NCBI GenBank assembly: GCA_045642705.1
Contig: JAZUJK010000007.1
Location: forward strand, 31,736 to 95,735
Direction: 5' to 3'
Source: Acutalibacteraceae bacterium
Lineage (GTDB): Bacteria; Bacillota; Clostridia; Oscillospirales; Acutalibacteraceae
Length of the DNA: 64,000 bases
Part shown: piece after piece, positions 16,284 through 64,000 of the stretch
How the letters are laid out: every line of letters starts with the position of its first letter
Numbering within the stretch: position 1 is the first letter of the stretch
Translations under genes and position numbers: made by a program
Notes under the pieces: generated by a model
Told to the model about the DNA's origin: nothing
Databases searched by the model: none
What the model saw: the letters and a program-made list of their open reading frames with translations, nothing else

Positions 16284-16288
16284 CCTCC

Positions 16289-17164: not shown

Positions 17165-17180
17165 AATTTACCTCTATCTG

Positions 17181-17211
17181 TGAAAATCAAGGGGAGCCGA
17201 GTGGGCTCCCC
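17181..17211 (-). terminator. Intercistronic hairpin / partial terminator between the binding-protein and permease genes
   Basis: GGGGAGCC-N5-GGCTCCCC (17211-17191 on the minus strand) is followed by UUGAUUUU. This arrangement is common after ABC binding-protein genes and produces an excess of SBP transcript. Confidence 0.45.
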
Positions 17212-17242
17212 TTGAACTGGTTTATAAGTTTTAACTTAAATC

Positions 17243-18494: not shown

Positions 18495-18968
18495 TTAAAG
18501 TTGCTTTTCAAGGCAGTCCTTATATTGGAGCAGGAATGCCTTGATTTTATTCATTTCTACAATGTATTTATCTATGTCGCGTATGAGCCATGGGTCTGGT
18601 ACAGGGGCATATTTGCCGGTTGCTGCCTCTGAGAGTGTTTTGAATTTTTTATGCCACCAAACTGGCAAAAGCAACTTGTGTCCCTTGGTCATTCCGATGA
18701 TAATATCGGCTTCACGGAAGAGTTTCCAATCATAAGGTCTAAGTATAAAACCAGGTTTATGACTGTTTACATATTCCCTATCAAATCCCTCTCGGATAAG
18801 GGCTTCCGCTGTATTGGGATCTATTGCTGGAACCGGACTCATGACAGCTGATGACTTGACCTCAACCTTGCCACGTAGGATGTCCGACTCCTCCACCATA
18901 CGCCTAAACATGTACTCACAATATGGGCTTCTGCACATATTTTGCGAGCAGACAAATAATACTTTCAT
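18495..18968 (-). CDS. Low-molecular-weight phosphotyrosine-phosphatase-family protein
   Basis: P-loop VCSQNMCRSP (CX5R-S, with Q where G is usual) and a downstream VPDPW (DP acid loop). 157 aa. Confidence 0.7.
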   Translation of the reverse strand: MKVLFVCSQNMCRSPYCEYMFRRMVEESDILRGKVEVKSSAVMSPVPAIDPNTAEALIREGFDREYVNSHKPGFILRPYDWKLFREADIIIGMTKGHKLLLPVWWHKKFKTLSEAATGKYAPVPDPWLIRDIDKYIVEMNKIKAFLLQYKDCLEKQL

Positions 18969-18976
18969 AGTGCTCC

Positions 18977-20596: not shown

Positions 20597-20615
20597 ATTT
20601 ATTCTCCTTTATATT

Positions 20616-21299
20616 TTATTTACCAAATTTTTTAACGTCATCGTGAGCGAATGTAAATGCGGCCTCAATGAATTTTAGCAGTTCACTTACCATTCTCTCA
20701 TTGTCATCGAAAATATCCTCACCGCAATAGATTTTTAGCCTCTCACGGTAATAATCACAAGTGTAAGAAAACTGAAGTGACATAAGGAGTGAGTCAAAGA
20801 AGAATGCGAACATAGCCGGGTCGCAGTCGTCTCTTATATCCCCTTTTTCTTTCGCTGCCGCGATGAAATCGCGGTATGTGCGCGCGGAGATATCCTCAAC
20901 GCGTTTCGCAAGGACAGCGGCGCCCTCGTTTTCAGACAACTTGGTAATTTCATTATATAATTTTACATACTTAGAGTCGGCGCCGGATGTCGCCTGGATA
21001 GCGCGTATCAATTTCTCCGCGCGCACCAGAATTTTGTCATCCGAGTTGACGACGCCATCAATTATCTCTTCGAGGGTTGTCATAGCCTCGTCAACGCAGG
21101 TGAGAAAATAGTCCTCTTTCGTATCGAAATACTTGTAGAGAAGTCCTACAGACACCCCTGCCTTTTTAGCGATAATATTGATATTTGCTTTCTCTAGACC
21201 GAGCTCTGAAAACTCATTGATACCAGCGGTTATAACCGCCGATTTATACTTGGGGTCAGCACGGTCAAAAGCCTCTTTATGATGCGGTTTTTCAGCCAT
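20616..21299 (-). CDS. TetR/AcrR-family transcriptional regulator
   Basis: N-terminal HTH (...NINIIAKKAGVSVGLLYKYFDTKEDYF). I prefer the start at MAEKPHH (21299), which follows GAGGAGG; the ORF track TTG start is at 21314. Confidence 0.85.
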   Translation of the reverse strand: MAEKPHHKEAFDRADPKYKSAVITAGINEFSELGLEKANINIIAKKAGVSVGLLYKYFDTKEDYFLTCVDEAMTTLEEIIDGVVNSDDKILVRAEKLIRAIQATSGADSKYVKLYNEITKLSENEGAAVLAKRVEDISARTYRDFIAAAKEKGDIRDDCDPAMFAFFFDSLLMSLQFSYTCDYYRERLKIYCGEDIFDDNERMVSELLKFIEAAFTFAHDDVKKFGK

Positions 21300-21323
21300 T
21301 GTATACCTCCTCAATACGGAGTT

Positions 21324-21339
21324 GTGAGTATTTGCTCAC
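21324..21339. promoter_or_regulatory. Candidate TetR operator 1 (inverted repeat)
   Basis: GTGAGT-ATTT-GCTCAC is a 6-4-6 inverted repeat with one mismatch. It lies in the 5' UTR of the tetR-kinase operon. Confidence 0.45.
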
Positions 21340-21410
21340 TATGGCTAAATTGTATCAATAAATTTGTTAAAATTCAATATAGATTTGTGCTTTTATTTTA
21401 CCATTAATAG

Positions 21411-21419
21411 TGGTATAAT
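21411..21419 (+). promoter_or_regulatory. Extended -10 promoter element for the aminotransferase-aldolase operon
   Basis: TGGTATAAT (TGnTATAAT), ~65 nt upstream of the ATG at 21484. The -35 region is weak. Confidence 0.45.
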
Positions 21420-21433
21420 TTTATTGTAAATAT

Positions 21434-21449
21434 GTGAGCAGCCGCTCAC
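21434..21449. promoter_or_regulatory. Candidate TetR operator 2 (perfect inverted repeat)
   Basis: GTGAGC-AGCC-GCTCAC is a perfect 6-4-6 palindrome with the same half-site as operator 1. It lies 15 nt downstream of the -10, a roadblock position. Confidence 0.5.
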
Positions 21450-21483
21450 GACACTATATTTTTTAAGTTTTGGAGGTATACAA

Positions 21484-22974
21484 ATGGACACAAGATTTGC
21501 TATTTCCGAGTACCCAGATGCGATAGCCATCAACAAGGAACTCGATGAACTTATCAAGAAGCCAATCTATTCTCTCAACAGAACTGCCCTCAAGAATTAT
21601 GAGGAAGAGTATTTTGAGAAGAAGTGCAAGAAGTCTAAAGAGATGATTACAGAGGCTCGCGACTATATACCAGGTGGCGTACAGCACAACCTCGCTTTCA
21701 ACCACCCATTCCCTATCGTTATGACTAAGGCCGAGGGCGCTTATCTCTACGATATCGATGGTAACCGTTACTATGACCTTCTCCAGGCAGGCGGTCCTAC
21801 AATTCTCGGTTCTAACGATCCAGTAGTTCGTGACGCTGTAATCGACCTTCTCAATACATGTGGTCCATCAACAGGTCTTTTCCATGAGTATGAGATGAAA
21901 CTCGCAAAGAAGATTTCTGAATGTGTTCCATCAGTTGAGATGTTCCGTATGCTCGGTTCAGGTACTGAGGCTTGCATGTGCGCAGAGCGTGTAGCACGTC
22001 TTGCAACAGGCCACAAGAACATCTTAAAGATGGGTGGCGCATACCACGGCTGGTCAGATATGATTGCATGGGATATGCGTATTCCAGGCACAATGAATCT
22101 CCAGTCTAAGGGTATTCCTATGTATGCATTCCGTCATACACAGGGCTTCTTCCCAGGCGACCTCGAGGATCTCGAGAAAAAGCTCAAGCTCAACGAACTC
22201 AACGGCGGTACAGCTGGCGTATTCATCGAGCCAATCGGCCCAGAGTCAGCAACTCGTCCTGTTACTCGTGAATTTGTTAAGGGTGTTGAAGCACTCTGTC
22301 ATAAATATGGTGCACTTCTCATCTGTGATGAAGTTGTATCTGGTTTCCGTATCGGTCTTGCTGGTGCTCAGGGTTACTATGGTATCGACCCAGACATCAC
22401 AATCTTCGGTAAAGTAATCGCTGGCGGTTACCCAGGTGCAGGCGGAATCGGCGGTCACAAGGATGTTATGAAACATCTCGGCGCTGGCCTTGACGCATCT
22501 GGCAAGAAGGTTAAGAAGGCAATGTGCGGTGGTACAATGGCAGCTACTCCAATCTCTTGCGTTGCTGGATATACAGCAATCTGCGAGATTGAGAAGCGCA
22601 ACGCTTGCCAGGTAGCAGGCCAGATGGGTGACCGCCTCACTAAGGGCATCCAGGCTTCTATCAAGAAGTACAACCTCCCATTCGTTGCATTCAACGTTGG
22701 TTCAGTTTGTCACCTTGATACAGTTGGTACAATGCAGTTCGCAATCGACCTCAAGAAGGCTTGGGAGATTCCAGGCATCCTTGATCAGACAGGTGTTCGT
22801 CAGGTTGAGATGCAGAACATGGGTGCTGCATACATGGCAGAAGGCCTCGTAACACTTGCAGGCTCACGTCTCTATACATCTGCTGCTTATACAGAGGAAA
22901 TGATCGACGATTGTATCGCTCGTTTCGACAAGGTTCTCTCACAGTGTGAACTTATCCCAACTAAGAAGAAATAA
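21484..22974 (+). CDS. Class III (fold type I) PLP enzyme, glutamate-1-semialdehyde-2,1-aminomutase-like, with a ~60-aa N-terminal extension
   Basis: 496 aa with GGVQHN...AEGAYLYDIDGNRYYDL, GSGTEACMCAERVAR, ICDEVVSGFRIG and the PLP-lysine block IFGKVIAGGYPGAGGIGG (compare HemL LGKIIGGGLP). Confidence 0.8.
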   Translation: MDTRFAISEYPDAIAINKELDELIKKPIYSLNRTALKNYEEEYFEKKCKKSKEMITEARDYIPGGVQHNLAFNHPFPIVMTKAEGAYLYDIDGNRYYDLLQAGGPTILGSNDPVVRDAVIDLLNTCGPSTGLFHEYEMKLAKKISECVPSVEMFRMLGSGTEACMCAERVARLATGHKNILKMGGAYHGWSDMIAWDMRIPGTMNLQSKGIPMYAFRHTQGFFPGDLEDLEKKLKLNELNGGTAGVFIEPIGPESATRPVTREFVKGVEALCHKYGALLICDEVVSGFRIGLAGAQGYYGIDPDITIFGKVIAGGYPGAGGIGGHKDVMKHLGAGLDASGKKVKKAMCGGTMAATPISCVAGYTAICEIEKRNACQVAGQMGDRLTKGIQASIKKYNLPFVAFNVGSVCHLDTVGTMQFAIDLKKAWEIPGILDQTGVRQVEMQNMGAAYMAEGLVTLAGSRLYTSAAYTEEMIDDCIARFDKVLSQCELIPTKKK

Positions 22975-22987
22975 TTGAGGTACAAAT

Positions 22988-24196
22988 ATGGCTTATGAAA
23001 TAAACGAAGCAAAGGCACTGGTTGTTGAGGCTGGTAAAAAGCTCGTTGAATCAGGTCTTATTGCTAGAACTTGGGGTAACGTATCTGCTCGTATCTCAGA
23101 TACTCAGTTCGTTATCACTCCATCAGGCCGTGCCTATGAGACACTTACACCTGATGAAATCGTTGTTGTAAATATTGCTGACTGTGAGTATGAAGGTGAT
23201 ATCAAGCCATCATCTGAAAAAGGTGTTCATGCTGACGCATATAAACTCCGTCCAGATGTTGATTTCATCATTCACACTCATCAGGTCAATGCATCAATAA
23301 TCTCTGCAGCTGGTATCCCAATCAAGGATATCCCTGCCAAGGATGCTAAGGTTCTCGGACCTATCGTTCCAGTTGGTGCTTATGGCATGCCATCAACAGG
23401 CGCTCTTCGCGAAGGCGTTGCGGCTGCTGTTGAAATAAACCCTGAGAGCAAGGCAGTAATCATGAAGCATCACGGCGCACTCTGCATGGGTGCCAGCCTT
23501 GATGAGGCCTTCAAGATTGCTGAGACACTTGAGGCTCTCTGTGCCAAGGAAGTTGGTCGCCTAACAGAATTTGCTTGTGGCAAGAAGTACAAGCCAGACA
23601 ATCTCTATAAGGCTTTCGCTACAGTCTTCCCAGGCAGCGGCGACGCACCTGTTGATCTCGGATCATCCAAGCGCATCAGTGATGAATTATTCGAGCTCTC
23701 TATGGAGAATGGCACACACTATGTCTGCACAATGCAAGGTGTTGGCAAGAATGGTATCGCTCCTCGTGTTGCCCTTATCCACGCTGCTATCTACAGAAAT
23801 TGCAAAGTTAAATTCATCGTTCCTTTCGCATCAGATGATGTTAAGGCACTCTCATATGGAGTAGATAAGCTTACACCTTATCTCGACGACTTCGCTCAGA
23901 TTGCTGGTCGCGATGTCAAGGTATGCAACTGGCTTAGAGCTTCATATCGTACAGATGCAGATGAAATTGGCAAGGCAGCCAAGGGTCGTAGCGCAATCGT
24001 TATCCGTGGCCAAGGAGCTCTATGCACAGGCAACTCAATGTTCGATATCGACGCTGTAAAGCTCGTACTTGAGAAGGAGTGCAAGACTGAGATGTATTCA
24101 CTCATCAAGTCTGGTGTAAAATCACTCTCTCCTATCGACTGCGCAATAATGAGAACAATTTATGTACTCAAATATTCAAAGCAGGCTAGCAAATAA
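22988..24196 (+). CDS. Tandem class II aldolase/adducin-fold protein (intact N-terminal domain plus degenerate C-terminal domain)
   Basis: In aa 1-~200 I read TWGNVSARI, PSSEKGVHADAY, metal ligands IIHTHQ and MKHHGALCMG. Residues ~230-402 repeat the fold (ALIHAAIY..., VIRGQGALCTGNS) but have VPFAS where HTH should be. Confidence 0.75.
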   Translation: MAYEINEAKALVVEAGKKLVESGLIARTWGNVSARISDTQFVITPSGRAYETLTPDEIVVVNIADCEYEGDIKPSSEKGVHADAYKLRPDVDFIIHTHQVNASIISAAGIPIKDIPAKDAKVLGPIVPVGAYGMPSTGALREGVAAAVEINPESKAVIMKHHGALCMGASLDEAFKIAETLEALCAKEVGRLTEFACGKKYKPDNLYKAFATVFPGSGDAPVDLGSSKRISDELFELSMENGTHYVCTMQGVGKNGIAPRVALIHAAIYRNCKVKFIVPFASDDVKALSYGVDKLTPYLDDFAQIAGRDVKVCNWLRASYRTDADEIGKAAKGRSAIVIRGQGALCTGNSMFDIDAVKLVLEKECKTEMYSLIKSGVKSLSPIDCAIMRTIYVLKYSKQASK

Positions 24197-52836: not shown

Positions 52837-55800
52837 TTATTGTAGAACTATATTATCTTCTCCTAAGATTGAACATAATTTATTAATAACATCATCATTT
52901 GGATCAATTGTAGACTTAAAAGATTCACTGTCATAACGTTTTTCGTCCAAATAGTAGAGATATACAGGTACTTGTCCATCATCCTTGGCCATTGTCGAGA
53001 GCAGTTTGAGAACAGGAACTACATTCTCATCCCCTGCAGAATTAAAGCGGATAAATAGACCAGCTTTCTTTTTCTTGGTATAAGGTCTCACCTTCATTAC
53101 TTTCAGTGAAGGTTTTTCATCCGCGCTCACCGAGAGGCGTGCGTCGATTATATAGATGCCATTTTCATGAAGCATACCGCCATATTGCTGGTATATCTTC
53201 GGGAAAATGGTCAGCTCAATGCCACCGGTCATATCCTCGGCATAGGCGCTCGCCATAGTGGTCGATGAGCGAGTTAGTCTTACATGGATACCGCTGACAA
53301 GGCATAATAGGACAACAGCATCGTTGTCTTTATACTTGGTTGTACCATCCTCACTCGCTTCAAGAAGTTCACATACCTTGGCAGAGTTCAGTGCCTTGGC
53401 AGCCTCTTGATAATCTTTCATTGGATGGCCAGAAATATAGAGTCCGGTCATCTCCTTTTCATATTGGAGAATCTCTGTCTCTGAAAACTCTGTAAGTTCT
53501 GGAATAGTCGGCGCAGATGACTCAGATGAATAAACATCCATATCAAAGAGACCCAACTGTCCCTCAACATTCCTGCGCCTGTCATTATCGAGTTCGCCAA
53601 GTATGTCTGGCAATGCTGTAAGCATCTGTCTCCTGTTAGCACCAAGGCCATCAAGTGCGCCACATTTAATAAGTGACTCTGCACATTTACGATTGAGTGC
53701 TGGGCCATGCATGCGACGCAAGAAATCATAATATGAAGTGAATTCACCCTCGAGTTCACGGTTACGAACGAGCTCGTTTATGAAATTTCGACCGATTCCC
53801 TTTACGCCAAGTAGGCCAAAAACAACATCACCGTCCATGATTGTAAACTCAGCAAAGCTGTAATTTACATGTGGTGGGAGGACCTTGATACCGAGGTTGT
53901 TGCACTCTGAAATATATTGAACTACCTTCTCATTAAAACCTATGACACTGGTTATCTGAGATGCCATAAACTCTGCTGGGAAGTGACATTTGAGATATGC
54001 TGTCTGGAATGCAAGATTGGCATAGCAAGCTGCATGCGACTTGTTAAAAGCATATGATGCGAAGGATATCATATCATCGAAAATAGAATTTGCAGCATCC
54101 TCTTGTATTCCATTATTCTTGCATCCTGAGACAAAAGTTTCTCTCTCCTGCTGCATAACATCATGCTTTTTCTTGGACATAGCACGACGCACAATATCAG
54201 CATGGCCAAGCGAATATCCAGCAAGTTCACGACATATTTGCATTACTTGCTCCTGATAAACCATACAGCCATAGGTGACATCGAGTATGTTTTTAAGTTC
54301 TGGTGTCTTGTACTTGATATCTGACGGATTATGTCTGTTATGTATATATGTTGGAATAGAATCCATAGGTCCAGGCCTATAGAGAGATGTAAGCGCTATG
54401 AGATCCTCGACCGATGTAGGTCTAAATTGCATAAGGACATTTTTAAGACCTGATGACTCAAATTGGAAGACACCATCTGTCTCGCCCCTACCAAACATTT
54501 CGAATGTTTTCCTGTCTGTAAAGTCAATATCCTTTACAGAGAACTCTGGTATGCGTTCACGCACCAATTTTTCGCAATCCGAAATTACAGTGAGTGTTCT
54601 AAGGCCTAGGAAATCCATCTTGAGAAGTCCCAGCTCATCTAGGGCTGTCATCGTATATTGTGTAACTATAGAATCGTCCTTTTTAGCCATAGGTACGTAG
54701 GTATAGACAGGATCCTTAGTGATTACAACACCCGCCGCATGGGTGGATGTATGACGTGGCATGCCCTCGATTTTTAGAGAATAATCAATGAGCATTTTAA
54801 TCTCTTCATCACTGTCTATCATTTCCTGCAATCCAGGTACAATCTCGATGGCACGTCTGAGGTCATGGCCGAGTCGCCAAGGAATCTTCTTGGTGACGGC
54901 ATCAACCTTGGCATAGGATATGCCAAGTACACGTCCTACATCCTTGATAGCGGCGCGCGCAGCAAGTGTACCAAATGTTACAATTTGAGCAACATGGTCA
55001 GCACCATATTTCGATACGACATAATCGATTACCTCTGGGCGTCTCTCATAACAAAAGTCGATATCAAAGTCAGGCATTGATACACGCTCAGGATTGAGGA
55101 AACGCTCAAAGAGCAAATTATATTTCATAGGATCAATGTCGGTGATTCCAATGCAGTATGCAACAATACTGCCCGCTCCAGAACCACGGCCTGGTCCCAC
55201 TGGAATCCCGCTCTGCTTGGCAAATCTTACAAAGTCATAGACGATGAGATAATAATCTGTATATCCCATCTTATCCACAACAGAGAGCTCGTAGTCCATA
55301 CGCTCTCTGTATTTTTCTATAAGTTCTGCACTAAATCCTCTATATCTCTTATTAAGGCCTGCGCTTGCAAGGGAGCGCAGATATTCCGCATGGTCTCTGC
55401 CATCTGGCACCTCAAAATGCGGAAGTTTTATTTTGCCAAATTCAAATTCTACATTACACCTATCTGCAATAATTCCTGTATTATCTATTGCCTCAGGTGC
55501 CATCATGAAGAGTTTTCTCATCTCCTCCTCACTCTTGACATAAAATTCATCTGTACGGAAATCGAGGCCTGTATCCTCGTCTATTGTATGGTTCGTCTGT
55601 ATACATACGAGTATCTTTTGGATTTTGGAATCCTCAGGCAATAGATAGTGGCAGTCATTGGTAGCCACAAGAGGGATGCCTGTCTCACGTGATAGACGAA
55701 CAAGTTTTGGAAGGACTCTCTCCTCCTCTGGGATTCCGTGATTCTGTATCTCTATATAGAAATTGCCCTCACCCATAATCTCGTTATATTCGCGGGCAAT

Positions 55801-56274
55801 CTCCATTGCACCATCATAGTCACCTGCTGATAGTTTAGCTGGTATCTCACCTTGGAGACATGCGGATAGTGCTATAAGGCCCTCATGATGTTCACGGAGC
55901 AAGGCCTTATCTATACGAGGTTTGGAATAAAATCCATCTGTAAATGAGTCAGATACCATCTTAATTAGATTCTGGTATCCTATATTATTCTCGCACAGGA
56001 GCACCAGATGGTGCCTTATCTTGGCAGCGGCGCTTGTCTTGTCATACATATCGTCGGAGACATATACTTCACAGCCAATAATAGGCTTCACTCCACGGCT
56101 CCGACATGCTTTGTAAAAGTCAATAGCCCCGTACATACATCCGTGGTCCGTCATAGCCACAGCTGTCTGTCCGAGGTTACTAATAACATCCGGCAACTCG
56201 TTTATCTTACAAGCGCCGTCTAGCAAGCTATATTCAGTATGTAAGTGCAAATGAGTAAAACTCACGCCTTCCAC
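52837..56274 (-). CDS. dnaE: DNA polymerase III alpha subunit (DnaE type)
   Basis: 1145 aa with the PHP domain FTHLHLHTEYSLLDG, the palm motif PDFDIDF and a C-terminal OB region. It overlaps the whiA end by 13 nt and has a GTG start. Confidence 0.9.
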   Translation of the reverse strand: MEGVSFTHLHLHTEYSLLDGACKINELPDVISNLGQTAVAMTDHGCMYGAIDFYKACRSRGVKPIIGCEVYVSDDMYDKTSAAAKIRHHLVLLCENNIGYQNLIKMVSDSFTDGFYSKPRIDKALLREHHEGLIALSACLQGEIPAKLSAGDYDGAMEIAREYNEIMGEGNFYIEIQNHGIPEEERVLPKLVRLSRETGIPLVATNDCHYLLPEDSKIQKILVCIQTNHTIDEDTGLDFRTDEFYVKSEEEMRKLFMMAPEAIDNTGIIADRCNVEFEFGKIKLPHFEVPDGRDHAEYLRSLASAGLNKRYRGFSAELIEKYRERMDYELSVVDKMGYTDYYLIVYDFVRFAKQSGIPVGPGRGSGAGSIVAYCIGITDIDPMKYNLLFERFLNPERVSMPDFDIDFCYERRPEVIDYVVSKYGADHVAQIVTFGTLAARAAIKDVGRVLGISYAKVDAVTKKIPWRLGHDLRRAIEIVPGLQEMIDSDEEIKMLIDYSLKIEGMPRHTSTHAAGVVITKDPVYTYVPMAKKDDSIVTQYTMTALDELGLLKMDFLGLRTLTVISDCEKLVRERIPEFSVKDIDFTDRKTFEMFGRGETDGVFQFESSGLKNVLMQFRPTSVEDLIALTSLYRPGPMDSIPTYIHNRHNPSDIKYKTPELKNILDVTYGCMVYQEQVMQICRELAGYSLGHADIVRRAMSKKKHDVMQQERETFVSGCKNNGIQEDAANSIFDDMISFASYAFNKSHAACYANLAFQTAYLKCHFPAEFMASQITSVIGFNEKVVQYISECNNLGIKVLPPHVNYSFAEFTIMDGDVVFGLLGVKGIGRNFINELVRNRELEGEFTSYYDFLRRMHGPALNRKCAESLIKCGALDGLGANRRQMLTALPDILGELDNDRRRNVEGQLGLFDMDVYSSESSAPTIPELTEFSETEILQYEKEMTGLYISGHPMKDYQEAAKALNSAKVCELLEASEDGTTKYKDNDAVVLLCLVSGIHVRLTRSSTTMASAYAEDMTGGIELTIFPKIYQQYGGMLHENGIYIIDARLSVSADEKPSLKVMKVRPYTKKKKAGLFIRFNSAGDENVVPVLKLLSTMAKDDGQVPVYLYYLDEKRYDSESFKSTIDPNDDVINKLCSILGEDNIVLQ

Positions 56275-57218
56275 CCTAGCCCTTCTGCGATTTCTAATAT
56301 CTTAGATAATCTATGATTTACACCTGACTTGGATATTGGCTCCTTCAAATTATCTGCGAGATCCTTTAGCGTATAGTCCTCATTTTCAAGGCGAAGCAAT
56401 GCGAGCTCGCGCAAATCATCTGGTAGATATCCTATGCCCTGTGTCTCTTCTATATATTCAATAGCCTTAATCTGCTTATATGCCGCGTCAAATGCTCTAC
56501 TTGAGTTGGCATTTTCAAAATTCATTTTACGGTTTACTCTATTGCGCATGTCCTTGTACATGCGAGCGCCCATAATCTGGAGCGCAGCATCTGACGCGCC
56601 AATATACGTGAGCAAATTCTCAATTTGCTCACCATCCTTGAAATATACAACATGTACACCACGTCTCTGTACATACTTTGGTGTGAATTCAATTATATTG
56701 CCAGTCGCATCATCAGCGATAGTAATCTCTGAAATAAGTTTTCTAAGGTCATCAGAGAGAACCTTGTGTGACATTACAAATTCGAGATGATAATCCTTCT
56801 CTGGGTCTGTAACAGTGCCGCAGGATAGGAATGCGCCACGCAGTATTGCTGCCATGCAGCACTCATCCTCTACGTTGGCGCGGTTCATGCGGCGGTTCAC
56901 CTCGTCACCGCTGTGGCCAAAGTAATCAAGTATTGCTTTGCGCTCACGAGCATTTCGAATTGTTACTTTATACTTTCCAGAATTTGAAAAATCAACTCGA
57001 GGCTCTGCACCGGTAATGGTCTGTGAATAGTCTGAGAATAACTCTGCTACACCCTCTTGCTCTGTCTTGATACAGATTGTCGCAGGAGTAAGATCACGGC
57101 AAAACAGGAATAAGCCGTACATCTCAGCATGGATGCAGCATGGTCGCATTCCGCCCATAGTTCTGGCAAGAACGCTTTTTTCTATCAATTCATCTTTTAC
57201 CGTTTTAGCAAATGACAC
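56262..57218 (-). CDS. whiA: DNA-binding protein WhiA
   Basis: 318 aa. FAKTVKDEL... is followed by a degenerate LAGLIDADG-like middle region and a C-terminal HTH (LKDLADNL..ISKSGVNHRL). Confidence 0.85.
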   Translation of the reverse strand: MSFAKTVKDELIEKSVLARTMGGMRPCCIHAEMYGLFLFCRDLTPATICIKTEQEGVAELFSDYSQTITGAEPRVDFSNSGKYKVTIRNARERKAILDYFGHSGDEVNRRMNRANVEDECCMAAILRGAFLSCGTVTDPEKDYHLEFVMSHKVLSDDLRKLISEITIADDATGNIIEFTPKYVQRRGVHVVYFKDGEQIENLLTYIGASDAALQIMGARMYKDMRNRVNRKMNFENANSSRAFDAAYKQIKAIEYIEETQGIGYLPDDLRELALLRLENEDYTLKDLADNLKEPISKSGVNHRLSKILEIAEGLGWKA

Positions 57219-57233
57219 TACTTTGTCCTCACT

Positions 57234-58133
57234 TTAGATAATTCTTACTTCTGGCTCGAGCTCTACGCCCTTCTGTTCTCTTACTGTGTCCTCAACAAGT
57301 TTCATAAGGTCGAGAACATCCTTGGATGTCGCATCACCAATGTTGATAACAAATCCAGCATGCTTCTCAGATACCTGAGCGCCACCAACTGTCTTGCCCT
57401 TTAGGCCACATTCGTCAATCAGTGCTGCAGCAAAATAGCCTTCTGGTCTCTTGAATGTGCTGCCTGCTGATGGATAATCAAGTGGCTGCTTTGCGCGACG
57501 TCTATTTAGTACATCAGTCATATTATTCTTAATACCCTCAGCATTGTCAGGCTCCAGGTGGAAGATTACTGATGTGATGATAAGGTCACTGTCAACATAG
57601 GCTGAATGACGATATGAGAAATCAAGCTGCGAGCCCTGGAATGAGCCACGCTCACCATCTAGATTCATATGGTTTACAACCCATATTACATCCTTCATCT
57701 CTCCGCCATATGCGCCGGCATTCATGAATGCTGCGCCACCTACTGTGCCTGGTATACCATAGGCAAATTCCATGCCGCCCAGTGAATATTCAAGAGCAAA
57801 TTTGCATAGATTTACAAGTTTCGCTCCCGCTTCAACACGGACGAGGTCATTACCTGCATATTCAATCTTGGAGAAACTGTCTCCCATTACTATTACGACA
57901 CCATCAATGCCCTCGTCACGGATAAGCACATTGCTACCGTTGCCGAGTACGATTGGCTTAATACCCTCTACCTTGCAAGCCTTCAGTATCTCGGACAATG
58001 CATCAACAGAGTTTGGCTCGACCAAAAGTTTCGCTGGTCCGCCAATCTTGAATGTCGTATATTTTGCCATATTGGCATTTTCAACATAGTTGCAACCGTT
58101 ATCACGGGCAGCCTTAATAATCTTTTCAAACAT
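57234..58133 (-). CDS. murB: UDP-N-acetylenolpyruvoylglucosamine reductase
   Basis: MAKYTTFKIGGPAKLLVEP, GNGSNVL, GAGSTFKRP-like SAGSTFKRP and AGGAQVSEKHAGF. 299 aa. Confidence 0.9.
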   Translation of the reverse strand: MFEKIIKAARDNGCNYVENANMAKYTTFKIGGPAKLLVEPNSVDALSEILKACKVEGIKPIVLGNGSNVLIRDEGIDGVVIVMGDSFSKIEYAGNDLVRVEAGAKLVNLCKFALEYSLGGMEFAYGIPGTVGGAAFMNAGAYGGEMKDVIWVVNHMNLDGERGSFQGSQLDFSYRHSAYVDSDLIITSVIFHLEPDNAEGIKNNMTDVLNRRRAKQPLDYPSAGSTFKRPEGYFAAALIDECGLKGKTVGGAQVSEKHAGFVINIGDATSKDVLDLMKLVEDTVREQKGVELEPEVRII

Positions 58134-59042
58134 TTAAAATTCTCCCATAGCAGCACCGATTATGCCTGCATCGTTTCCAAGTTCTGCAATTTTAATCTCT
58201 GTCTGCTTCTCTGAATTTTTAGTATAACGCTTTTCCTCTATCTTGCGGCAAAGTGGCTCAAGCAAATAGTCACCTTGTCCTGCAACGCCACCGCCAAGAC
58301 AGATAATCTCTGGCTGGAATATATTAATGAGATTGGAAAGTCCTGTGCTTAGATAGTCATAGTATGAATCGAGAACTTCCAGTGCAATTAGATTGTCACT
58401 CTTGGCAAGTTCAAAAATATCGCGAGCGCCGGCAACATCGAGACCCTTCTCTCTAGCATCTCGGATGAGAGCAGTCGCTGATGCATATTGCTCAAAGCAA
58501 CCTATTCTGCCACATTTGCAAGGGATACCCTGGTGGTCAATCACCATATGACCTATCTCACCAGCGGCTCCATTGACACCTGTAAGAAGCTTGCCATCAA
58601 TGATAATTCCGCCACCGATACCGGTGCCGAGTGTTACAGCAATGAAGTTTCGAGCGCCACGTCCTGCACCTGCAATCTGTTCGCCAAGAGCTGCACAATT
58701 TGCATCATTATATACTCTTGTAGGCTTGCCGAGTCGCTCTTCTACGAGAGCGCGAAGTGGCGTATTTTGAAATCCCAAGTTGGCATCGTTTTCTACAACG
58801 CCCTGGGCATTTACTGCCCCAGGTGTTCCGACGCCAACGGATGCGATATCATCCATTGTGACGCCCGCAGCGTCTAGCGCCAGTCGCGCAGCATCTGCTA
58901 TCGCATCTGCAATCTCCCCCGCCGTGCGTGGAAGTGCTGTTGGTACGCTACCGCGCCCAACAATATTGCAGCCGTCGTCCACGACGCCGGCAGCGATATT
59001 TGTGCCACCGAGATCTATTCCAATTCTAAGCAAGGTTTTCAC
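58134..59042 (-). CDS. glcK: ROK-family glucokinase
   Basis: IGIDLGGTNIAAG, the ROK signature with the zinc motif CKCGRIGCFEQYAS, and C-terminal GNDAGIIGAA. It has a GTG start after AGAGG and abuts murB. Confidence 0.8.
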   Translation of the reverse strand: MKTLLRIGIDLGGTNIAAGVVDDGCNIVGRGSVPTALPRTAGEIADAIADAARLALDAAGVTMDDIASVGVGTPGAVNAQGVVENDANLGFQNTPLRALVEERLGKPTRVYNDANCAALGEQIAGAGRGARNFIAVTLGTGIGGGIIIDGKLLTGVNGAAGEIGHMVIDHQGIPCKCGRIGCFEQYASATALIRDAREKGLDVAGARDIFELAKSDNLIALEVLDSYYDYLSTGLSNLINIFQPEIICLGGGVAGQGDYLLEPLCRKIEEKRYTKNSEKQTEIKIAELGNDAGIIGAAMGEF

Positions 59043-59064: not shown

Positions 59065-59092
59065 TAATATAATACCATAAATATAGGTCAAA
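59065..59092 (-). promoter_or_regulatory. Promoter of the glcK-murB-whiA-dnaE unit
   Basis: TTGACC (59092-59087), 16 nt, TATTAT (59070-59065), immediately after the upstream terminator. Confidence 0.5.
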
Positions 59093-59122
59093 AAAAAGTG
59101 GGTAAGCAATTGCTTACCCACA
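59091..59122 (-). terminator. Intrinsic terminator ending the aminotransferase-transketolase operon
   Basis: GUGGGUAAGC-AAUU-GCUUACCCAC (59122-59099) is followed by U8 on the minus strand. Confidence 0.8.
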
Positions 59123-59145: not shown

Positions 59146-59943
59146 TTATTTAGCAAGTGCGCCAACTGTAGCCATATGGTCACCAAGCTGTACGCCGAAC
59201 TCTGGGCCGCCCTTCATGATGAGCTGACGATTAGCTGTCATCTCAAACATGTCGCCGATCTCCATAAGGATAAGGAGAGCTGACTCTGGGCAGTCAAATG
59301 CCATTGTAAAGAATGGATCTGAACGCTCATAGAGGCCCTTACCTGCCTTAGAGTTACCGTGATCAATTCTAATGTGTGCAGCAATCTCTGGATGGCCGAT
59401 AACTTCCCACTGGTAGCAACGGTCAGGAGATTCCTTAACCCACTTAGAAATTGTTGGATGTCCCATCTTATTAAGAGCTGAGATACCTGTTGAAAGAAGA
59501 GCGAAATAGAGCTTTGTAAGAAGAAGCTGTGTATCAGGATCCTCAGGAACTTCTGTTGCTGTAAGAAGTGAAGACATCTTAAGAAGAACAGCCATGAAGA
59601 GGCCGAACTTTGCAACGTTCTTGATCTTGAAGCCTGGAAGCTTAGTCATATCTCCGCACATAAATGCGTTCATCTTTTCCATTGATGAGAAAGCAAGTTC
59701 ACCATCAATCTGATTCTTACCTGAGTAGAGACCCTGGTATACTTCCCACTTACCATCAGTTACTACGAAATGAACTGCTTCCTTCTTGCCATCAGCCTTA
59801 GCTGATACCTGGTAAACAGCATTGATCTTAGGAATTGTGAAAAGCTTATTAAGTGTTGGATCGTCTGTAGCGATGATTTTCAATAGAGGCAAAGCAGCTG
59901 CCATGAAAACTTTATTCGCATAACGTACTTCATCTGTAGGCAT
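59146..59943 (-). CDS. Unassigned 265-aa protein, possibly a tandem SCP2-like fold; distant paralog of 63201-63965
   Basis: It has a strong RBS (AAGGAGGA) and is soluble, with no catalytic motif I recognise. The C-terminal half (...FTMAFDCPESALLILMEIGDMFEMTANRQLIMKGGPEFGVQLGDHM) resembles the SCP2 pattern ending in G-x-[LI]-x-[IM]-x-G. Confidence 0.35.
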   Translation of the reverse strand: MPTDEVRYANKVFMAAALPLLKIIATDDPTLNKLFTIPKINAVYQVSAKADGKKEAVHFVVTDGKWEVYQGLYSGKNQIDGELAFSSMEKMNAFMCGDMTKLPGFKIKNVAKFGLFMAVLLKMSSLLTATEVPEDPDTQLLLTKLYFALLSTGISALNKMGHPTISKWVKESPDRCYQWEVIGHPEIAAHIRIDHGNSKAGKGLYERSDPFFTMAFDCPESALLILMEIGDMFEMTANRQLIMKGGPEFGVQLGDHMATVGALAK

Positions 59944-59960
59944 AATTCTTTTCCTCCTTA

Positions 59961-60974
59961 TTAATATTCATCTGCCCAATCAGTATTAGCAGCAAGATTC
60001 TTGCCGAGGAGGCTTGCAGCAGCTGCAGCAACGCCATTAGCGTCGATACCAGCGATTGTAAGCAAGTCTTCCTGAAGACCGATTGTTGAGAAGTTGTTGT
60101 CATGACCGAGCATCTTGAGCTTGCATGGCTTGCCATATTCAGCAATTACTTCTGCTACTGCAGAACCAAGACCGCCCTGGATTACGTGGTCCTCTACTGT
60201 TACGATGCAGCCTGTCTCATCAATTGCCTTGATGATAGCTTCCTTGTCGATTGGCTTTAGTGTATGCATGTTAAGAACACGAGCATTAACACCAAGGTCA
60301 GACTTCAAGATATTAGCTGCCTGAAGTGACTGATAAACGCCAGCGCCGATACCGATGATTGTAGCATCGTTACCGTCCTTGAGCTGATCAGCCTTATCCC
60401 ATACGAAGTTAACTGAGTCTGGGCCGCCCTCATATACAACTGCGTCGAAACCACGGTTGATACGAATGTAAACAGGACCAGGAATGTCATATGAAGCCTT
60501 AACGAGCTTGTAAGCCTCAGCACCATCAGCTGGGCACATAACTGTCATATGAGGAAGTGATCTTGCAACTGCGAGGTCGATAATAGCATGGTGTGTTGAA
60601 CCAGCCTGACCGAAAGATGTACCTGCATGTGATGCAAGGATCTTAACAGGAACGTTCTGATAGCAGATATCTGTATGAATCTGATCAAGAGAACGAGCAG
60701 CTGCGAAAATTGAGAATGTAGATGCATAAGGAACGAATCCGTTCTTAGCAAGACCAGCAGCGATACCGAACATGTTCTGCTCAGCAATACCACAGTTGAT
60801 AAGTCTGTCAGGGAAAGCCTTTACGAAAGGAGCAATCTTAGTAGACTTAGCAAGGTCAGCAGTAAGAGCAATAACGTCTGGATGCTCTTCGCCTAGGTCA
60901 TGGAGTGCCTTACCATAGTACTCAGCTGTAGTAAGTCTCTCAGCTTCGATAGAAGTATATACCATACCACCCAT
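59961..60974 (-). CDS. Transketolase, C-terminal (pyrimidine-binding) subunit
   Basis: ...CGIAEQNMFGIAAGLA..., FSIFAAARSLDQI and GAGSTHHAI-like GQAGSTHHAI. The ATG at 60974 follows AAGGAGGG, 2 nt after the stop of the N-terminal subunit. The ORF track start is 61007. Confidence 0.85.
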   Translation of the reverse strand: MGGMVYTSIEAERLTTAEYYGKALHDLGEEHPDVIALTADLAKSTKIAPFVKAFPDRLINCGIAEQNMFGIAAGLAKNGFVPYASTFSIFAAARSLDQIHTDICYQNVPVKILASHAGTSFGQAGSTHHAIIDLAVARSLPHMTVMCPADGAEAYKLVKASYDIPGPVYIRINRGFDAVVYEGGPDSVNFVWDKADQLKDGNDATIIGIGAGVYQSLQAANILKSDLGVNARVLNMHTLKPIDKEAIIKAIDETGCIVTVEDHVIQGGLGSAVAEVIAEYGKPCKLKMLGHDNNFSTIGLQEDLLTIAGIDANGVAAAAASLLGKNLAANTDWADEY

Positions 60975-60976
60975 GA

Positions 60977-61870
60977 TTATTTGCCCTCCTTTTCTGCGCG
61001 AGCACAACGCTCAGCATAATACTTATCAAGTGAATCGAAAGCATCCTTAGCCTTCTTATCATCAAGAGAACCATAGTGCCAGAGATAGTTATCCTTCATG
61101 AAGTCAACGCCTTCACCCTTGAATGTATCAAGGATAATTGCTGTTGGCTTGTCGCCCTTCTTAGCGTTTTCGATAGCTGCCTCAATAGCAATATTGAGCT
61201 GTGAGAAGTCATGACCATCAACACGATATACGTTGAAGTTGAAAGCCTTAAACTTCTTATCGATTGGCTCGATGTTCATTTCATCTGCAACACGACCATC
61301 GATCATGCACTTGTTGTTATCAACCATAACAACAAGATTTGAAAGCTTGAACTGAGCGGCACTCATGATACCTTCCCAGTTTGAACCTTCGTTCATCTCA
61401 CCGTCACCGCAGATTACATATGTCATGTAATCCTTACCCTTGAGCTTAGCTGCGAGAGCAGCACCAACACCAAGAGAAATACCGTGACCAAGAGAACCTG
61501 TTGAGAAATCTACGCCCTTAACCTTATTAGAATCAAGGTGCATACCGATCTTGGCACCTGTGAGGTTGAAGATCTGGAGTTCCTCGATTGGCATAAAGCC
61601 ATAATCAACAAGAACAGGAGCATAACCTACTGCTGCGTGACCCTTTGAAAGTACAAAACGGTCTCTGTCCTCATAATTTGGATTGTGTGGATCAAGCTTC
61701 ATGAATCTATGATAGAGAATTGTCATAGCATCCATAGCAGACATTGCGCCACCAATATGTCCTGAACCGCCCCAAATAGCTGTCTGAAGAGTCAACTTTC
61801 TGAGTTCATGAGCTTTTGCTTCAAGGCGGAGCCATTCAGCCTTATCAAAAGGCTTATAATTTGCTGGCAT
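60977..61870 (-). CDS. Transketolase, N-terminal (TPP-binding) subunit
   Basis: GSGHIGGAMS, SKGHAAVGYAP, the TPP motif GDGEMNEGSNWE and VDNNKCMIDG. I prefer the start MPANYK (61870); the ORF track start is 61888. Confidence 0.85.
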   Translation of the reverse strand: MPANYKPFDKAEWLRLEAKAHELRKLTLQTAIWGGSGHIGGAMSAMDAMTILYHRFMKLDPHNPNYEDRDRFVLSKGHAAVGYAPVLVDYGFMPIEELQIFNLTGAKIGMHLDSNKVKGVDFSTGSLGHGISLGVGAALAAKLKGKDYMTYVICGDGEMNEGSNWEGIMSAAQFKLSNLVVMVDNNKCMIDGRVADEMNIEPIDKKFKAFNFNVYRVDGHDFSQLNIAIEAAIENAKKGDKPTAIILDTFKGEGVDFMKDNYLWHYGSLDDKKAKDAFDSLDKYYAERCARAEKEGK

Positions 61871-61910
61871 GAATATATCCCCTTTCATTCAAAAAATATG
61901 AATAAAAATT

Positions 61911-63185
61911 TTATTTAATTAAACCGAGATCAGGATGACGCTCAGCAACTACTGAGAATGCGTCATTAGCAACATCGATTGTATAATCGATATCCTCATC
62001 TGTAAGAGCTGCATTGATGAAGTGGTTGTGATGTGATGCGAAGAAGATACCACGGCTTACGCACTCAGCAACCCACTCCTGATGAAGCATAAGGTTATCA
62101 TCATTAGCAATTCTGAAATAGAAGAGTGCTGGCTCACCAGATGTAACAAGATTGATGTTGTGCTCTTTACCTGCTGCTACAAGACCATCGAGGAGCTTAG
62201 TACCCTTCTGACGGAACATTGTAGGAGTATCGAGTGCCTTCATCTTGTTGATACAAGCGATACAAGCTGCAAATGGCTCAGCTGAAAGCCAATAAGAACC
62301 TGTATATACAACTGATGAAGCTGTTGACTTCATGTGCTCCTGGCCGCATACGCAAGACATGTTATATCCGTTTGCAAGAGCCTTGCAGAAGCAGATAAGG
62401 TCTGCCTTGAAACCGTAGTAATGGTCAGAACCAGCGAGGTCAAGACGGAAGCCTACGCGAACGTCGTCGATGATAAGAAGCATACCGTGATCATCGCAGA
62501 ACTTACGAACTGCAGCCCACTGCTCCTTAGTAGCGCAAACGTTGTCATAGAAGTTACCATGGTCATATGGCTGAGCGATGATAGCAGCAACGTCGCCGTT
62601 GTTCTCATCATATACTCTCTGAAGTGCTTCCATATCGAACCAAGGAATTACAACGTTGTTAGCAACTTCCTCTGGAAGAATACCAGGATAGTCAGCCTTC
62701 TGAGCCCACTGGAAGTCACCATGATAGTAACCTTTGAAGAATACGATCTTCTTCTTGCCAGTATGTGCACGTGCGCACATTACTGAGAATGTTGTAGCGT
62801 CTGAACCGTTCTTCATGAAGAAAGCCCAGTCAGCGCAGTTAACTGTGTCCTTAAGAAGTTCTGCGCACTCAACCATCTTATAAGATACAGAAGTTGTGCA
62901 GTTACCCTTCTTAAGTTGCTCGATTGCTGCTGCATCAACGTCGTCATCGCAGTAACCGAGTACGTTAGGACCGTATGCGCACATATAGTCGATGTAACGG
63001 TTTCCGTCTACATCCCAGAAATATGTGCCCTTAGCATGGTCGCACATAAGAGGCCACTTTGTGATTGGAAGGAAAAGTCCTTCTGATGGGCCGAGGTGAC
63101 CATAAACGCCTGATGGAACAGCTGCGAGTGCTCTATCAAACCATTTTTTAGATTCAACATGTGAATATTCTGGATATTTACTCAT
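61911..63185 (-). CDS. Class III PLP enzyme, glutamate-1-semialdehyde-aminomutase-like (second copy in the window)
   Basis: 424 aa with AKGTYFWDVDGNRYIDY, NGSDATTFSVMCAR, IIDDVRVGFR and the PLP-lysine block CFCKALANGY. Confidence 0.8.
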   Translation of the reverse strand: MSKYPEYSHVESKKWFDRALAAVPSGVYGHLGPSEGLFLPITKWPLMCDHAKGTYFWDVDGNRYIDYMCAYGPNVLGYCDDDVDAAAIEQLKKGNCTTSVSYKMVECAELLKDTVNCADWAFFMKNGSDATTFSVMCARAHTGKKKIVFFKGYYHGDFQWAQKADYPGILPEEVANNVVIPWFDMEALQRVYDENNGDVAAIIAQPYDHGNFYDNVCATKEQWAAVRKFCDDHGMLLIIDDVRVGFRLDLAGSDHYYGFKADLICFCKALANGYNMSCVCGQEHMKSTASSVVYTGSYWLSAEPFAACIACINKMKALDTPTMFRQKGTKLLDGLVAAGKEHNINLVTSGEPALFYFRIANDDNLMLHQEWVAECVSRGIFFASHHNHFINAALTDEDIDYTIDVANDAFSVVAERHPDLGLIK

Positions 63186-63200
63186 TATCTGTTCCCTCCT

Positions 63201-63965
63201 TTAAGCAAGATAAATTGAAACTCTATCAAGAATACGGTTGATGTTGTCAAGCATGTTGATCATGCCGCTCATGTAGATGTTACCAGCGCAGAGTTCGCCC
63301 ATTGTAGAAGCTGTGCCATTAAAGAGTCCGTTTGCAAGCTCAATTGTCTTGAACTCCATGATTGCACGTGGCTTCTCGCACTTCTCTTTCTTAAGTGTGA
63401 GATGGTGATCCTTAGCTGTTACTGTTACGTAAACCTTATCTGTGATACCCATAGAGATATCACCGTCAACGATGTAAGAAGCTGAAAGCTTAGAAATCTC
63501 ATCGTTGTTACCGAGTGCGCAGATAGCGCCGCCGATTACGTACATTGTAAGGATTGTTGACTTCTCGAAGAAGTCCTTGTTCTTGAGATCCTCATCAGAA
63601 GCTCTAAGATACTTTACGAGAATATTAGTGAGCTTGGTGAAAGGACCGAGCAAGAAAGTGAGTACCTGTACAGGATTCTTTGTTGGAATACCTGGCTTAG
63701 AATTGTCAATGAGGTCATTGAACTTTTCTGGAGATGAGAAAGACATCTTGCAAGTGCATCCGTCTTCGCCCTCTGTAAATTTACAACCTTCAGTTGTGAA
63801 ATTAAGTGTGAAGCAAGGGCCATCTTTTACATCAAAGCAAAATGATACAGGATTCTTAATCTTGCTACATACTTTTTTAGCATCTGCATCCATCTCGCAA
63901 AGATTTTCGAGTGCTGCGAGAACGCCATAAGCATTAGCAAATGCCATTGCTCTTGGATCTTTCAT
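63201..63965 (-). CDS. Unassigned 254-aa protein, distant paralog of 59146-59943; first visible gene of the operon
   Basis: It has a strong RBS (AAAGGAGGAAA). Shared blocks with the 265-aa protein include MSFSSPEKFNDLI versus LAFSSMEKMNAFM, and the C-terminal ...NIYMSGMINMLDNINRIL versus ...LIMKGGPEFGVQLGDHM. The window ends 35 nt upstream. Confidence 0.35.
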   Translation of the reverse strand: MKDPRAMAFANAYGVLAALENLCEMDADAKKVCSKIKNPVSFCFDVKDGPCFTLNFTTEGCKFTEGEDGCTCKMSFSSPEKFNDLIDNSKPGIPTKNPVQVLTFLLGPFTKLTNILVKYLRASDEDLKNKDFFEKSTILTMYVIGGAICALGNNDEISKLSASYIVDGDISMGITDKVYVTVTAKDHHLTLKKEKCEKPRAIMEFKTIELANGLFNGTASTMGELCAGNIYMSGMINMLDNINRILDRVSIYLA

Positions 63966-64000
63966 GTTATTTCCTCCTTTTTAAAAAATACGCGAAAGAT

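Follow-up and report, generated by a model that had tools for sequence, protein, structure and literature searches.

Near the end of a stretch of 64,000 nucleotides from contig JAZUJK010000007.1 of an Acutalibacteraceae bacterium (hereafter the window), a class-III pyridoxal 5'-phosphate (PLP) aminotransferase and the two subunits of a split transketolase are enclosed by two proteins without an assigned family, here termed U1 and U2. The locus raises the question of which pathway would couple an aminotransferase to an enzyme that uses thiamine diphosphate (ThDP) to transfer two-carbon units, and what the two flanking proteins would contribute to it. The analysis points to a dedicated five-gene unit in which two putative lipid carriers serve the two enzymes. 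The reading put forward here, which is regarded as plausible but by no means assured, is that the carriers hand over a long-chain vicinal amino alcohol, which the aminotransferase turns into an alpha-hydroxyketone, and that the ThDP enzyme cleaves this ketone to a fatty aldehyde and a two-carbon unit, or that the same steps run in reverse.

Gene order and neighbourhood of the unit

The list of open reading frames (ORFs) of the window places five on the minus strand at 59146-63965, as originally predicted, and the enzyme assignments of three of the five genes were upheld by a scan of Pfam and NCBIfam. In the direction of transcription the genes encode U1 (63201..63965, 254 aa), the aminotransferase (61911..63185, 424 aa), the ThDP-binding PP-domain subunit of the transketolase (TKN; 60977..61870, 297 aa), the transketolase subunit with the Pyr and C-terminal domains (TKC; 59961..60974, 337 aa) and U2 (59146..59943, 265 aa). 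The ORFs listed for TKN (60977-61888) and TKC (59961-61007) are both longer than the versions favoured here. The position of the ribosome-binding site (RBS) and the length of the orthologs support a start at 61870 for TKN, the alternative at 61888 giving a protein of 303 aa, and a start at 60974 for TKC, 2 nt past the stop of TKN. The strong RBSs and the strong terminator that had been predicted are also present. A GGAGG-type RBS is found 6-8 nt upstream of each of the five genes, whose close spacing suggests translational coupling, and the operon is closed by an intrinsic terminator (59090..59121, minus strand) with a GC-rich 10-bp stem at 59098-59121 followed by T8 (dG -20.2 kcal/mol; z = -7.0 against shuffled sequences). 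Immediately past this terminator lies a promoter-like sequence, TTGACC-16-TATTAT (59091-59064), which would serve the next gene, encoding a ROK-family glucokinase.

At the other end of the operon the 5' leader of U1 (63966..64000, minus strand), with the RBS AAAGGAGG, reaches the edge of the window, and the promoter lies beyond it. The U1 leader of relatives is 190-270 nt long, and an Rfam search of the region upstream of U1 in these relatives gave no match to a riboswitch or leader RNA. The gene upstream of U1 in the relatives is either divergent (pntA or a TetR gene) or has a terminator and a promoter between it and U1. For this reason the operon is predicted, from the comparison of relatives, to begin at U1 and the unit to consist of exactly five genes, and the upstream extension that was first considered possible is not supported.

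The five-gene unit was found to be widely conserved. A scan of species-representative genomes yielded 80 gut loci with a U1 identity of 65-88%, and 84 gut loci entered the count of gene order. Essentially all of the carriers are metagenome-assembled genomes (MAGs) of Acutalibacteraceae, Oscillospiraceae or 'Eubacterium', sampled from human, ruminant, horse and chicken hosts, with E. coprostanoligenes ATCC 51222 included. The full order U1-aminotransferase-TKN-TKC-U2 is present in 63 of the 84, the rest being mostly truncated contigs and otherwise variants with U1 and the aminotransferase. A metagenome scan with distant relatives of U1 (an alignment of six sequences) gave a further 80 environmental loci with a GC content of 0.34-0.65. 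At least 21 of those of sufficient length keep the five-gene order, with identities to the window proteins of 25-33% for U1, 41-52% for the aminotransferase, 43-55% for the transketolase subunits and 29-37% for U2. The complete cassette was also found in Desulfoluna spongiiphila, Brassicibacter mesophilus, a Hydrogenedentes MAG and a MAG labelled as Bacteroidetes. The aminotransferase always directly follows U1, barring a few environmental loci with a U1-like gene alone, and U2 always follows TKC; more than 100 contigs carry one single ortholog.

The surroundings of the cassette vary by lineage, with pntAB, purF and nitrogen-assimilation genes, PGM or alanine racemase upstream and ROK-murB-whiA-dnaE, fn3 proteins, DinB or SpoIVB downstream. 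In the window, the genes for the ROK glucokinase, murB, whiA and dnaE (PolIII alpha) occupy 52837-59042 past the terminator, and the same order is seen in the nearest relative (L001). No conserved flanking family that would name a substrate was found in more than 15 of the 84 gut loci or 8 of the 80 environmental loci, the flanking families being mostly of a housekeeping nature. Likewise, across the approximately 170 loci the cassette has no kinase, isomerase, reductase, dehydrogenase or transporter as a conserved companion, and the lack of a conserved transporter, kinase or isomerase fits a membrane-soluble substrate. Because the gene order is kept across phyla while the flanks change, this deep synteny is taken to exclude a chance adjacency of the five genes. 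The coupling of an aminotransferase with a transketolase, described in the original prediction as non-standard, is therefore borne out as a genuine association.

It should also be noted that in D. spongiiphila (L167, 12614-13045) an IS200-type Y1 transposase gene lies between the aminotransferase and TKN, with the cassette otherwise intact. Eight loci (L010, L028, L058, L059, L061, L065, L071 and L080) come from MAGs with unexpected labels, namely Coriobacteriia, Bacteroides, Muribaculaceae, Bacteroidaceae, Phascolarctobacterium or Paludibacteraceae. Their U1 is 66-78% identical to the Clostridia version and is accompanied by the aminotransferase, with the full cassette in some, and these are most likely mis-binned contigs or mislabelled bins and not cases of transfer.

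The flanking proteins and the two enzymes

Neither U1 nor U2 could be assigned to a Pfam or NCBIfam family, and profile searches with both against PDB sequences returned noise (MD-2, E 0.05) or nothing. Their direct comparison is also weak (BLASTP E 0.022; hhalign E 0.038 over 179 collinear columns). AlphaFold (AF2) models of the two proteins were confident (pLDDT 92.7 for U1 and 92.5 for U2; pTM 0.89) and have a near-identical order of helices and strands, and the same order repeats twice inside each protein. When compared with the PDB using Foldseek, nearly all top matches of both models were of the SCP2 fold (SCP2, SCP2-like proteins, UbiJ-SCP2 and the SCP2 domain of an alkylsulfatase), each spanning approximately half of U1 or U2 with TM scores of about 0.55-0.69, normalised to targets of about 110 aa. 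A profile of distant U1 relatives matches the U2 ORFs of the same loci (E 1e-6 to 5e-21), and the two halves of a U1-type protein, N-terminal and C-terminal, also align with one another (hhalign probability 95%, E 2e-8). Given the matching order of secondary structure, the shared fold and the match through the intermediate profile, the models indicate that U1 and U2 are diverged paralogs, each a predicted tandem double SCP2 domain. The relationship between the two proteins had thus been recognised correctly, as had their resemblance to SCP2, although the latter was placed in the C-terminal halves only and is found in both halves of each protein.

The U1 and U2 of the window, and the halves of each, do not match the Pfam SCP2 model (PF02036) even at E = 10. 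Many of the distant U1 relatives carry precomputed PF02036 matches, one of them scoring E 0.007, and a few are already named SCP2. An exhaustive profile search placed the U1 family at 446 clusters at 50% identity, all of stand-alone proteins of approximately 250-265 aa. Within the gut clade U1 has nine invariant or near-invariant cysteines (C23, C33, C43, C51, C61, C70, C72, C149 and C226), while U2 has no conserved cysteine. An Fe-S or metal site formed by these nine residues was considered as a trait of the family and dropped, the distant homologs being without them. In three loci (L105, 6634-12192; also L107 and L137) U1-like tandem-SCP2 genes were found beside a thiolase gene and without an adjacent aminotransferase, a neighbour that recalls the eukaryotic SCPx association of thiolase and SCP2; a sulfatase gene is also located near the U1-like gene in L105. 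In the cassette itself, we infer that U1 is a putative lipid carrier partnering the aminotransferase and U2 a putative lipid carrier partnering the transketolase.

The aminotransferase matches PF00202 (E 2e-38), and its closest relative in the PDB is FumI (6hbs, E 1e-80), to which it is 37% identical across 402 columns; HemL follows at approximately 1e-42, with all others at 1e-42 or weaker. The catalytic lysine, Lys268, is retained, with FCKALANGY aligning to WGKCFANGY of FumI. The substrate of FumI is hydrolysed fumonisin, a C20 2-amino-3-ol, whose amino group at C2 is passed on to pyruvate so that a 3-hydroxy-2-ketone results; the Km is 1.1 uM (PMC3136697). The enzyme of the window falls in the branch of glutamate-1-semialdehyde (GSA) aminomutase-like proteins, and "HemL-like" was the description it had first been given. 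This proved too loose, since the enzyme scores far under the HemL equivalog cut-offs in NCBIfam (TIGR00713, 190 against 527; NF000818, 209 against 398). In the loci examined no tetrapyrrole (hem) genes adjoin the cassette, the one exception being a Hydrogenedentes locus with a URO-D family gene upstream. On these scores and this lack of hem neighbours an identity as HemL was ruled out.

TKN matches PF00456 (E 1e-48) and is closest in the PDB to 6yak chain A, from the split transketolase of Carboxydothermus hydrogenoformans (E 6e-62), while TKC, which matches PF02779 and PF02780, is closest to 6yaj (E 8e-79). As expected of a transketolase, the pair has PP, Pyr and TKC domains together with the ThDP/metal motif (GDG...N), and Glu411, which activates the cofactor, is retained. 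E. coli TktA, the numbering of which is used here, was aligned with 89 cassette transketolases (64 gut, 25 environmental). Residues H26, H66, H100, D155, N185, E411, H461, H473, S385 and R520 are invariant in all 89, and the equivalent of H261 is visible as vDGHd in the HMMER alignment. At the position of D469, alanine was found in 87 and glycine in the remaining two; E468 is never retained, and L466 is replaced by phenylalanine throughout. R358 belongs, with S385, H461 and R520, to the phosphate-binding set of the housekeeping enzyme; its position is alanine in all 64 gut enzymes, the environmental ones being divided between alanine (11), arginine (13) and lysine (1). The TKC of the window thus carries D469 to Ala, at residue 124 of the subunit, E468 to Gln, L466 to Phe and R358 to Ala. 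D469, the counterpart of yeast Asp477, reads the alpha-hydroxyl of the sugar and forms a hydrogen bond with the C2-OH of an acceptor or with the C4-OH of a donor sugar. The changed positions are active-site residues (PMC8016368) which set acceptor specificity, and replacement of D469 in the E. coli enzyme admits non-polar aliphatic and aromatic aldehydes (PMC7661550, PMC5073344). The cassette transketolase is predicted from its residues to be catalytically competent, yet not built for ordinary sugar phosphates. That it is not a plain housekeeping enzyme is argued, in agreement with the original prediction, by the loss of the canonical Asp469 across the whole cassette family. There is no second transketolase within the 64-kb window.

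Variants of the cassette are informative as to which parts belong together. Seven environmental loci (L134, L112, L117, L128, L129, L139 and L140) encode a protein of 850-890 aa, convergent to U1 and the aminotransferase and 6 bp away from them, which is a fused alpha and beta E1 of the pyruvate dehydrogenase (PDH) type with an N-terminal SCP2 domain (L134, 10121-12724). The first 130 or so residues of this fusion cover nearly the whole Pfam SCP2 model, which is their sole match (E 9e-4 to 0.02 in three sequences), and no E2 or E3 genes were found near it. By its position and domains the fusion is predicted to stand in for TKN, TKC and U2 together. As an SCP2 domain and an E1 are naturally fused here, the SCP2 module appears to be tied to the ThDP enzyme, with the pair of aminotransferase and ThDP enzyme as the core of the system. 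We know of no description of such an architecture.

In two gut lineages (L058-L061, L064 and L065; approximately 10090-10920) a gene for a GDPD-family phosphodiesterase follows U1 and the aminotransferase, replacing the transketolase and U2, and in L064 a TetR gene is found immediately after it. A dedicated TetR ortholog (45-64% identity between phyla) lies beside the cassette in 14 loci, usually divergent and upstream; in L167 its gene occupies 9027-9725. In B. mesophilus (L168, 14721-19792) the cassette is followed, with tight spacing, by genes for a VOC/glyoxalase-family protein, a split BaiCD/FadH-type ene-reductase, a TetR protein and a MatE pump. This ene-reductase is an Fe-S flavoenzyme with an OYE domain and a separate pyridine-nucleotide reductase. 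An EamA transporter gene was also seen upstream of the cassette in the same locus, and VOC genes were seen in L160 and L163. An ene-reductase was considered as an operon member in gut loci as well and was dropped, as its location 4-7 kb upstream reflects subclade synteny.

A candidate route for long-chain amino alcohols and its rivals

From the two enzymes and their presumed carriers we infer a substrate class of sphingoid-base-type 2-amino-1,3-diols. U1 would extract the lipid amine from the membrane and hand it to the FumI-like aminotransferase, which would shift the amino group from C2 onto pyruvate, or onto a comparable 2-oxo acid, and so produce a 1,3-dihydroxy-2-ketone, chemically a transketolase donor. 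U2 would then deliver this ketol to the split transketolase, where cleavage between C2 and C3 would release a fatty aldehyde without an alpha-hydroxyl and leave a ThDP-bound glycolaldehyde unit to be transferred to an acceptor. A 2-amino-3-ol of the 1-deoxy type would give a methyl acyloin instead, suited to an E1-type enzyme, and sphingosine would give a 2-enal. This scheme is preferred because it covers the relatives of the aminotransferase, the carriers, the altered pocket, the E1 variant and the lack of a conserved transporter, kinase or isomerase. The chemistry is reversible, and the direction favoured is that of catabolism or detoxification of a toxic amphiphile, owing to the TetR proteins, pumps and ene-reductase found in other lineages. 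The ene-reductase, VOC protein and pumps of Brassicibacter fit a substrate that is both hydrophobic and toxic, and a product of the enal type. According to a review, cholesterol-reducing Eubacterium strains needed and consumed plasmenylethanolamine (PMC8468837), and this is counted in favour of the scheme as a sign of a lipid-dependent lifestyle in the lineage.

A number of points weigh against this scheme. The identity to FumI is just 37%, and class-III enzymes readily switch substrates. Lipid binding is not a property of every SCP2 fold, Eis and the auxiliary domains of MycE/SpnK also turning up further down the Foldseek lists. The residues S385, H461 and R520, which bind anions, never vary, and about half of the environmental cassettes retain R358; one substrate may still bear a phosphate or carboxylate. 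Natural sphingoid bases of the D-erythro configuration would give a (3R)-ketol, and canonical transketolases prefer (3S). Furthermore, the scheme leaves the acceptor of the two-carbon unit unspecified and gives no direct explanation for the loci in which U1, the aminotransferase and the GDPD-family enzyme occur without a transketolase.

The same conserved content, two enzymes with their carriers, would be best explained by a closed cycle working in the biosynthetic direction, which is nevertheless considered unlikely. Here the aminotransferase would make hydroxypyruvate from serine, the transketolase would add its two-carbon unit irreversibly to an SCP2-bound fatty aldehyde, and the aminotransferase would aminate the resulting ketodiol, so that aldehyde and serine would yield a 2-amino-1,3-diol and CO2 independently of serine palmitoyltransferase. 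In the E1 variant an alanine/pyruvate pair would lead to 1-deoxy-type bases. Such a cycle agrees with the family of the variant partner, the PDH-type E1 being by family a pyruvate decarboxylase, here without E2 or E3 nearby, with the pyruvate/alanine pair used by FumI-type enzymes, with the location of the gut cassette amid housekeeping genes and without a regulator, and with an artificial cascade in which serine/hydroxypyruvate recycling makes 2-amino-1,3-diols (PMC5813273). It is opposed by the TetR proteins, efflux pumps and ene-reductase of other lineages, which look catabolic or detoxifying, by the lack of an acyltransferase or ceramide-synthase-like gene downstream, and by hydroxypyruvate not being established as a physiological transketolase donor. 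That no sphingolipid is known to us from these lineages also counts against it. The GDPD-family phosphodiesterase directly after U1 and the aminotransferase in two gut lineages might instead point to the head groups of ethanolamine phospholipids or plasmalogens. SCP2 would then hold the acyl or alkenyl chains and the aminotransferase would turn the ethanolamine amine into a phosphoglycolaldehyde diester, which, with its 2-oxygen esterified and no free alpha-hydroxyl, would be extended by the transketolase or, in the variants, cleaved by the GDPD-family enzyme. An aldehyde with a phosphate at O2 would fit an enzyme that has lost D469 yet kept S385, H461 and R520, and the need for plasmenylethanolamine and its consumption, summarised in PMC8468837, would be in keeping, although the strains that require it have been lost and are not known as members of this lineage. 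With the GDPD link confined to 6 of the approximately 170 loci, FumI acting on an amine that sits on a secondary carbon beside a hydroxyl and not on a terminal ethanolamine, and the PDH-type E1 variant hard to square with an aldehyde-only substrate, head-group metabolism is thought improbable.

A soluble pathway for amino sugars or aminopolyols (or their phosphates), in which the transketolase would act on amino-ketose phosphates, with U1 and U2 serving as scaffolds or as accessory proteins that bind a ligand, has only a slim chance of being correct. The original prediction had drawn its analogies from this area, namely amino-sugar phosphates of the aminoshikimate type, sulfo-sugars and apiose. 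The companions expected from the sulfo-transketolase, apiose and aminoshikimate routes (isomerase, kinase, reductase, aminoDAHP synthase and transporter) are not conserved in the approximately 170 loci, no kinase, isomerase, dehydrogenase or transporter being conserved with the cassette in any lineage. These analogies also leave two lipid carriers, and the SCP2-E1 fusion, unexplained, and D469, which reads the sugar hydroxyl, is gone in 89 of 89. What such a pathway can claim for itself is the invariance of S385, H461 and R520, the R358 of half of the distant cassettes, the place of the aminotransferase in the GSA-aminomutase-like branch and the SNF, MFS or EamA transporters near a few loci. 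Lastly, an ordinary split transketolase of the pentose phosphate pathway might merely have the aminotransferase and the two unknown proteins as unrelated neighbours. The glucokinase, murB, whiA, dnaE and purF genes around the gut cassette and the absence of a second transketolase from the 64-kb window would agree with this. It is rendered extremely improbable by the identical order across several phyla in changing surroundings, by the tight spacing suggestive of translational coupling, by the loss of the canonical D469 throughout the cassette family and by the joint replacement of the transketolase and U2 by the SCP2-E1 fusion in the variants.

A second pairing of an aminotransferase with a carbon-carbon-cleaving enzyme had been pointed out at 18.5-24.2 kb of the window. 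That locus is real, but it is an unrelated system, its class-III aminotransferase (21484-22974, plus strand, 496 aa) being 27% identical to that of the cassette. It further comprises a low-molecular-weight phosphatase-family protein (18495-18968, minus strand), an FGGY sugar kinase (18977-20596, minus strand), a TetR protein (20616-21314, minus strand) divergent from the aminotransferase, and a class-II aldolase of 402 aa (22988-24196, plus strand). From its gene content, 18495-24196 looks like a separate catabolic locus for an amino sugar or aminopolyol. Parts of an ABC transporter of the branched-chain-amino-acid type, a Peripla_BP_6 binding protein and two BPD_transp_2 permeases, were seen at 15099-18415.

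Comparison with known systems

Each part of the cassette comes from a known superfamily, namely class-III aminotransferases, transketolase-like ThDP enzymes and the SCP2 fold. For their combination no published precedent was found, the literature search giving no natural pathway that joins an aminotransferase to a transketolase or that does so with SCP2 lipid carriers. It is suggested, tentatively and with considerable doubt, that the cassette represents the first natural pathway of a transaminase and a ThDP enzyme for sphingoid-type long-chain bases, working without ATP or CoA and with paired tandem-SCP2 carriers. Sphingosine and sphinganine would in that case be degraded or detoxified in anaerobes, the abundant E. 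coprostanoligenes group of the human gut among them, or bases would be made from fatty aldehyde and serine without serine palmitoyltransferase, and the PDH-E1 variant would do likewise for 1-deoxy (alanine-derived) bases. Sphingoid bases act at the gut surface as signalling lipids and antimicrobials, and both Bacteroides and the diet contain them in abundance. To our knowledge no route for their anaerobic, ATP-independent synthesis or breakdown has been described. Most species of one prevalent gut family, which includes the cholesterol-reducing E. coprostanoligenes, carry the cassette, and so do sediment and bioreactor anaerobes of several phyla. If the proposal is true, the two flanking proteins would be new families of tandem-SCP2 carriers dedicated to enzymes, the transketolase would be a natural one with a pocket that engineers reached by directed evolution, and the pathway would be the natural counterpart of the transketolase-transaminase cascade for chiral amino-diols. 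Three cultured hosts, E. coprostanoligenes, B. mesophilus and D. spongiiphila, make the proposal directly testable.

Among characterised enzymes, the closest solved relative of the aminotransferase is FumI, the class-III PLP aminopentol aminotransferase of the fumonisin cluster of Sphingopyxis sp. MTA144, which takes the amino group off C2 in a sphinganine-like 2-amino-3-ol lipid by means of pyruvate to leave an alpha-hydroxyketone (PMC3136697). FumI differs in working beside a carboxylesterase in an aerobic proteobacterial cluster, and its description mentions neither an SCP2 partner nor an adjacent ThDP enzyme, nor what becomes of the keto product. The carriers share their fold with SCP2 and UbiJ, the latter being a model for an SCP2 domain which holds a hydrophobic intermediate for soluble enzymes. 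U1 and U2 differ from these in being tandem double domains of approximately 255-265 aa, in having no Pfam match in the gut clade and in forming a paralogous pair that flanks two enzymes. Under the proposed scheme the overall interconversion and the fatty-aldehyde product would be the same as those of serine palmitoyltransferase on the one hand and sphingosine kinase with sphingosine-1-phosphate lyase on the other, but no alpha-oxoamine synthase, kinase or PLP lyase would be involved and neither ATP nor acyl-CoA would be required. Dedicated and often split transketolases are likewise found in the catabolic operons of the sulfoquinovose sulfo-transketolase and apiose routes. Those operons are equipped for soluble sugars, with isomerases, kinases, reductases and transporters, and have neither an aminotransferase nor SCP2 proteins; their companion genes are all missing from the cassette.

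With the split transketolase of C. hydrogenoformans (6yak/6yaj) the cassette enzyme shares the alpha2beta2 split architecture and the catalytic residues. The former keeps the arginine (IATREAYG) and Gly-Glu-Asp-Gly, whereas the latter has alanine at that arginine in the gut clade and Gly-x-Ala/Gly-Gly throughout and is always embedded between the aminotransferase and an SCP2 protein. The engineered E. coli transketolases (D469T/E/Y, R358, R520 and S385) are altered at the same positions, with a shift to non-phosphorylated, non-polar aldehydes. In the cassette R520 and S385 are unchanged, and the combination of the two enzymes is natural, ancient and coupled to putative lipid carriers, whereas the laboratory constructs use short soluble substrates. 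The artificial transketolase-transaminase cascades to 2-amino-1,3-diols follow the same two-enzyme logic as that proposed here, including the recycling of serine and hydroxypyruvate (PMC5813273).

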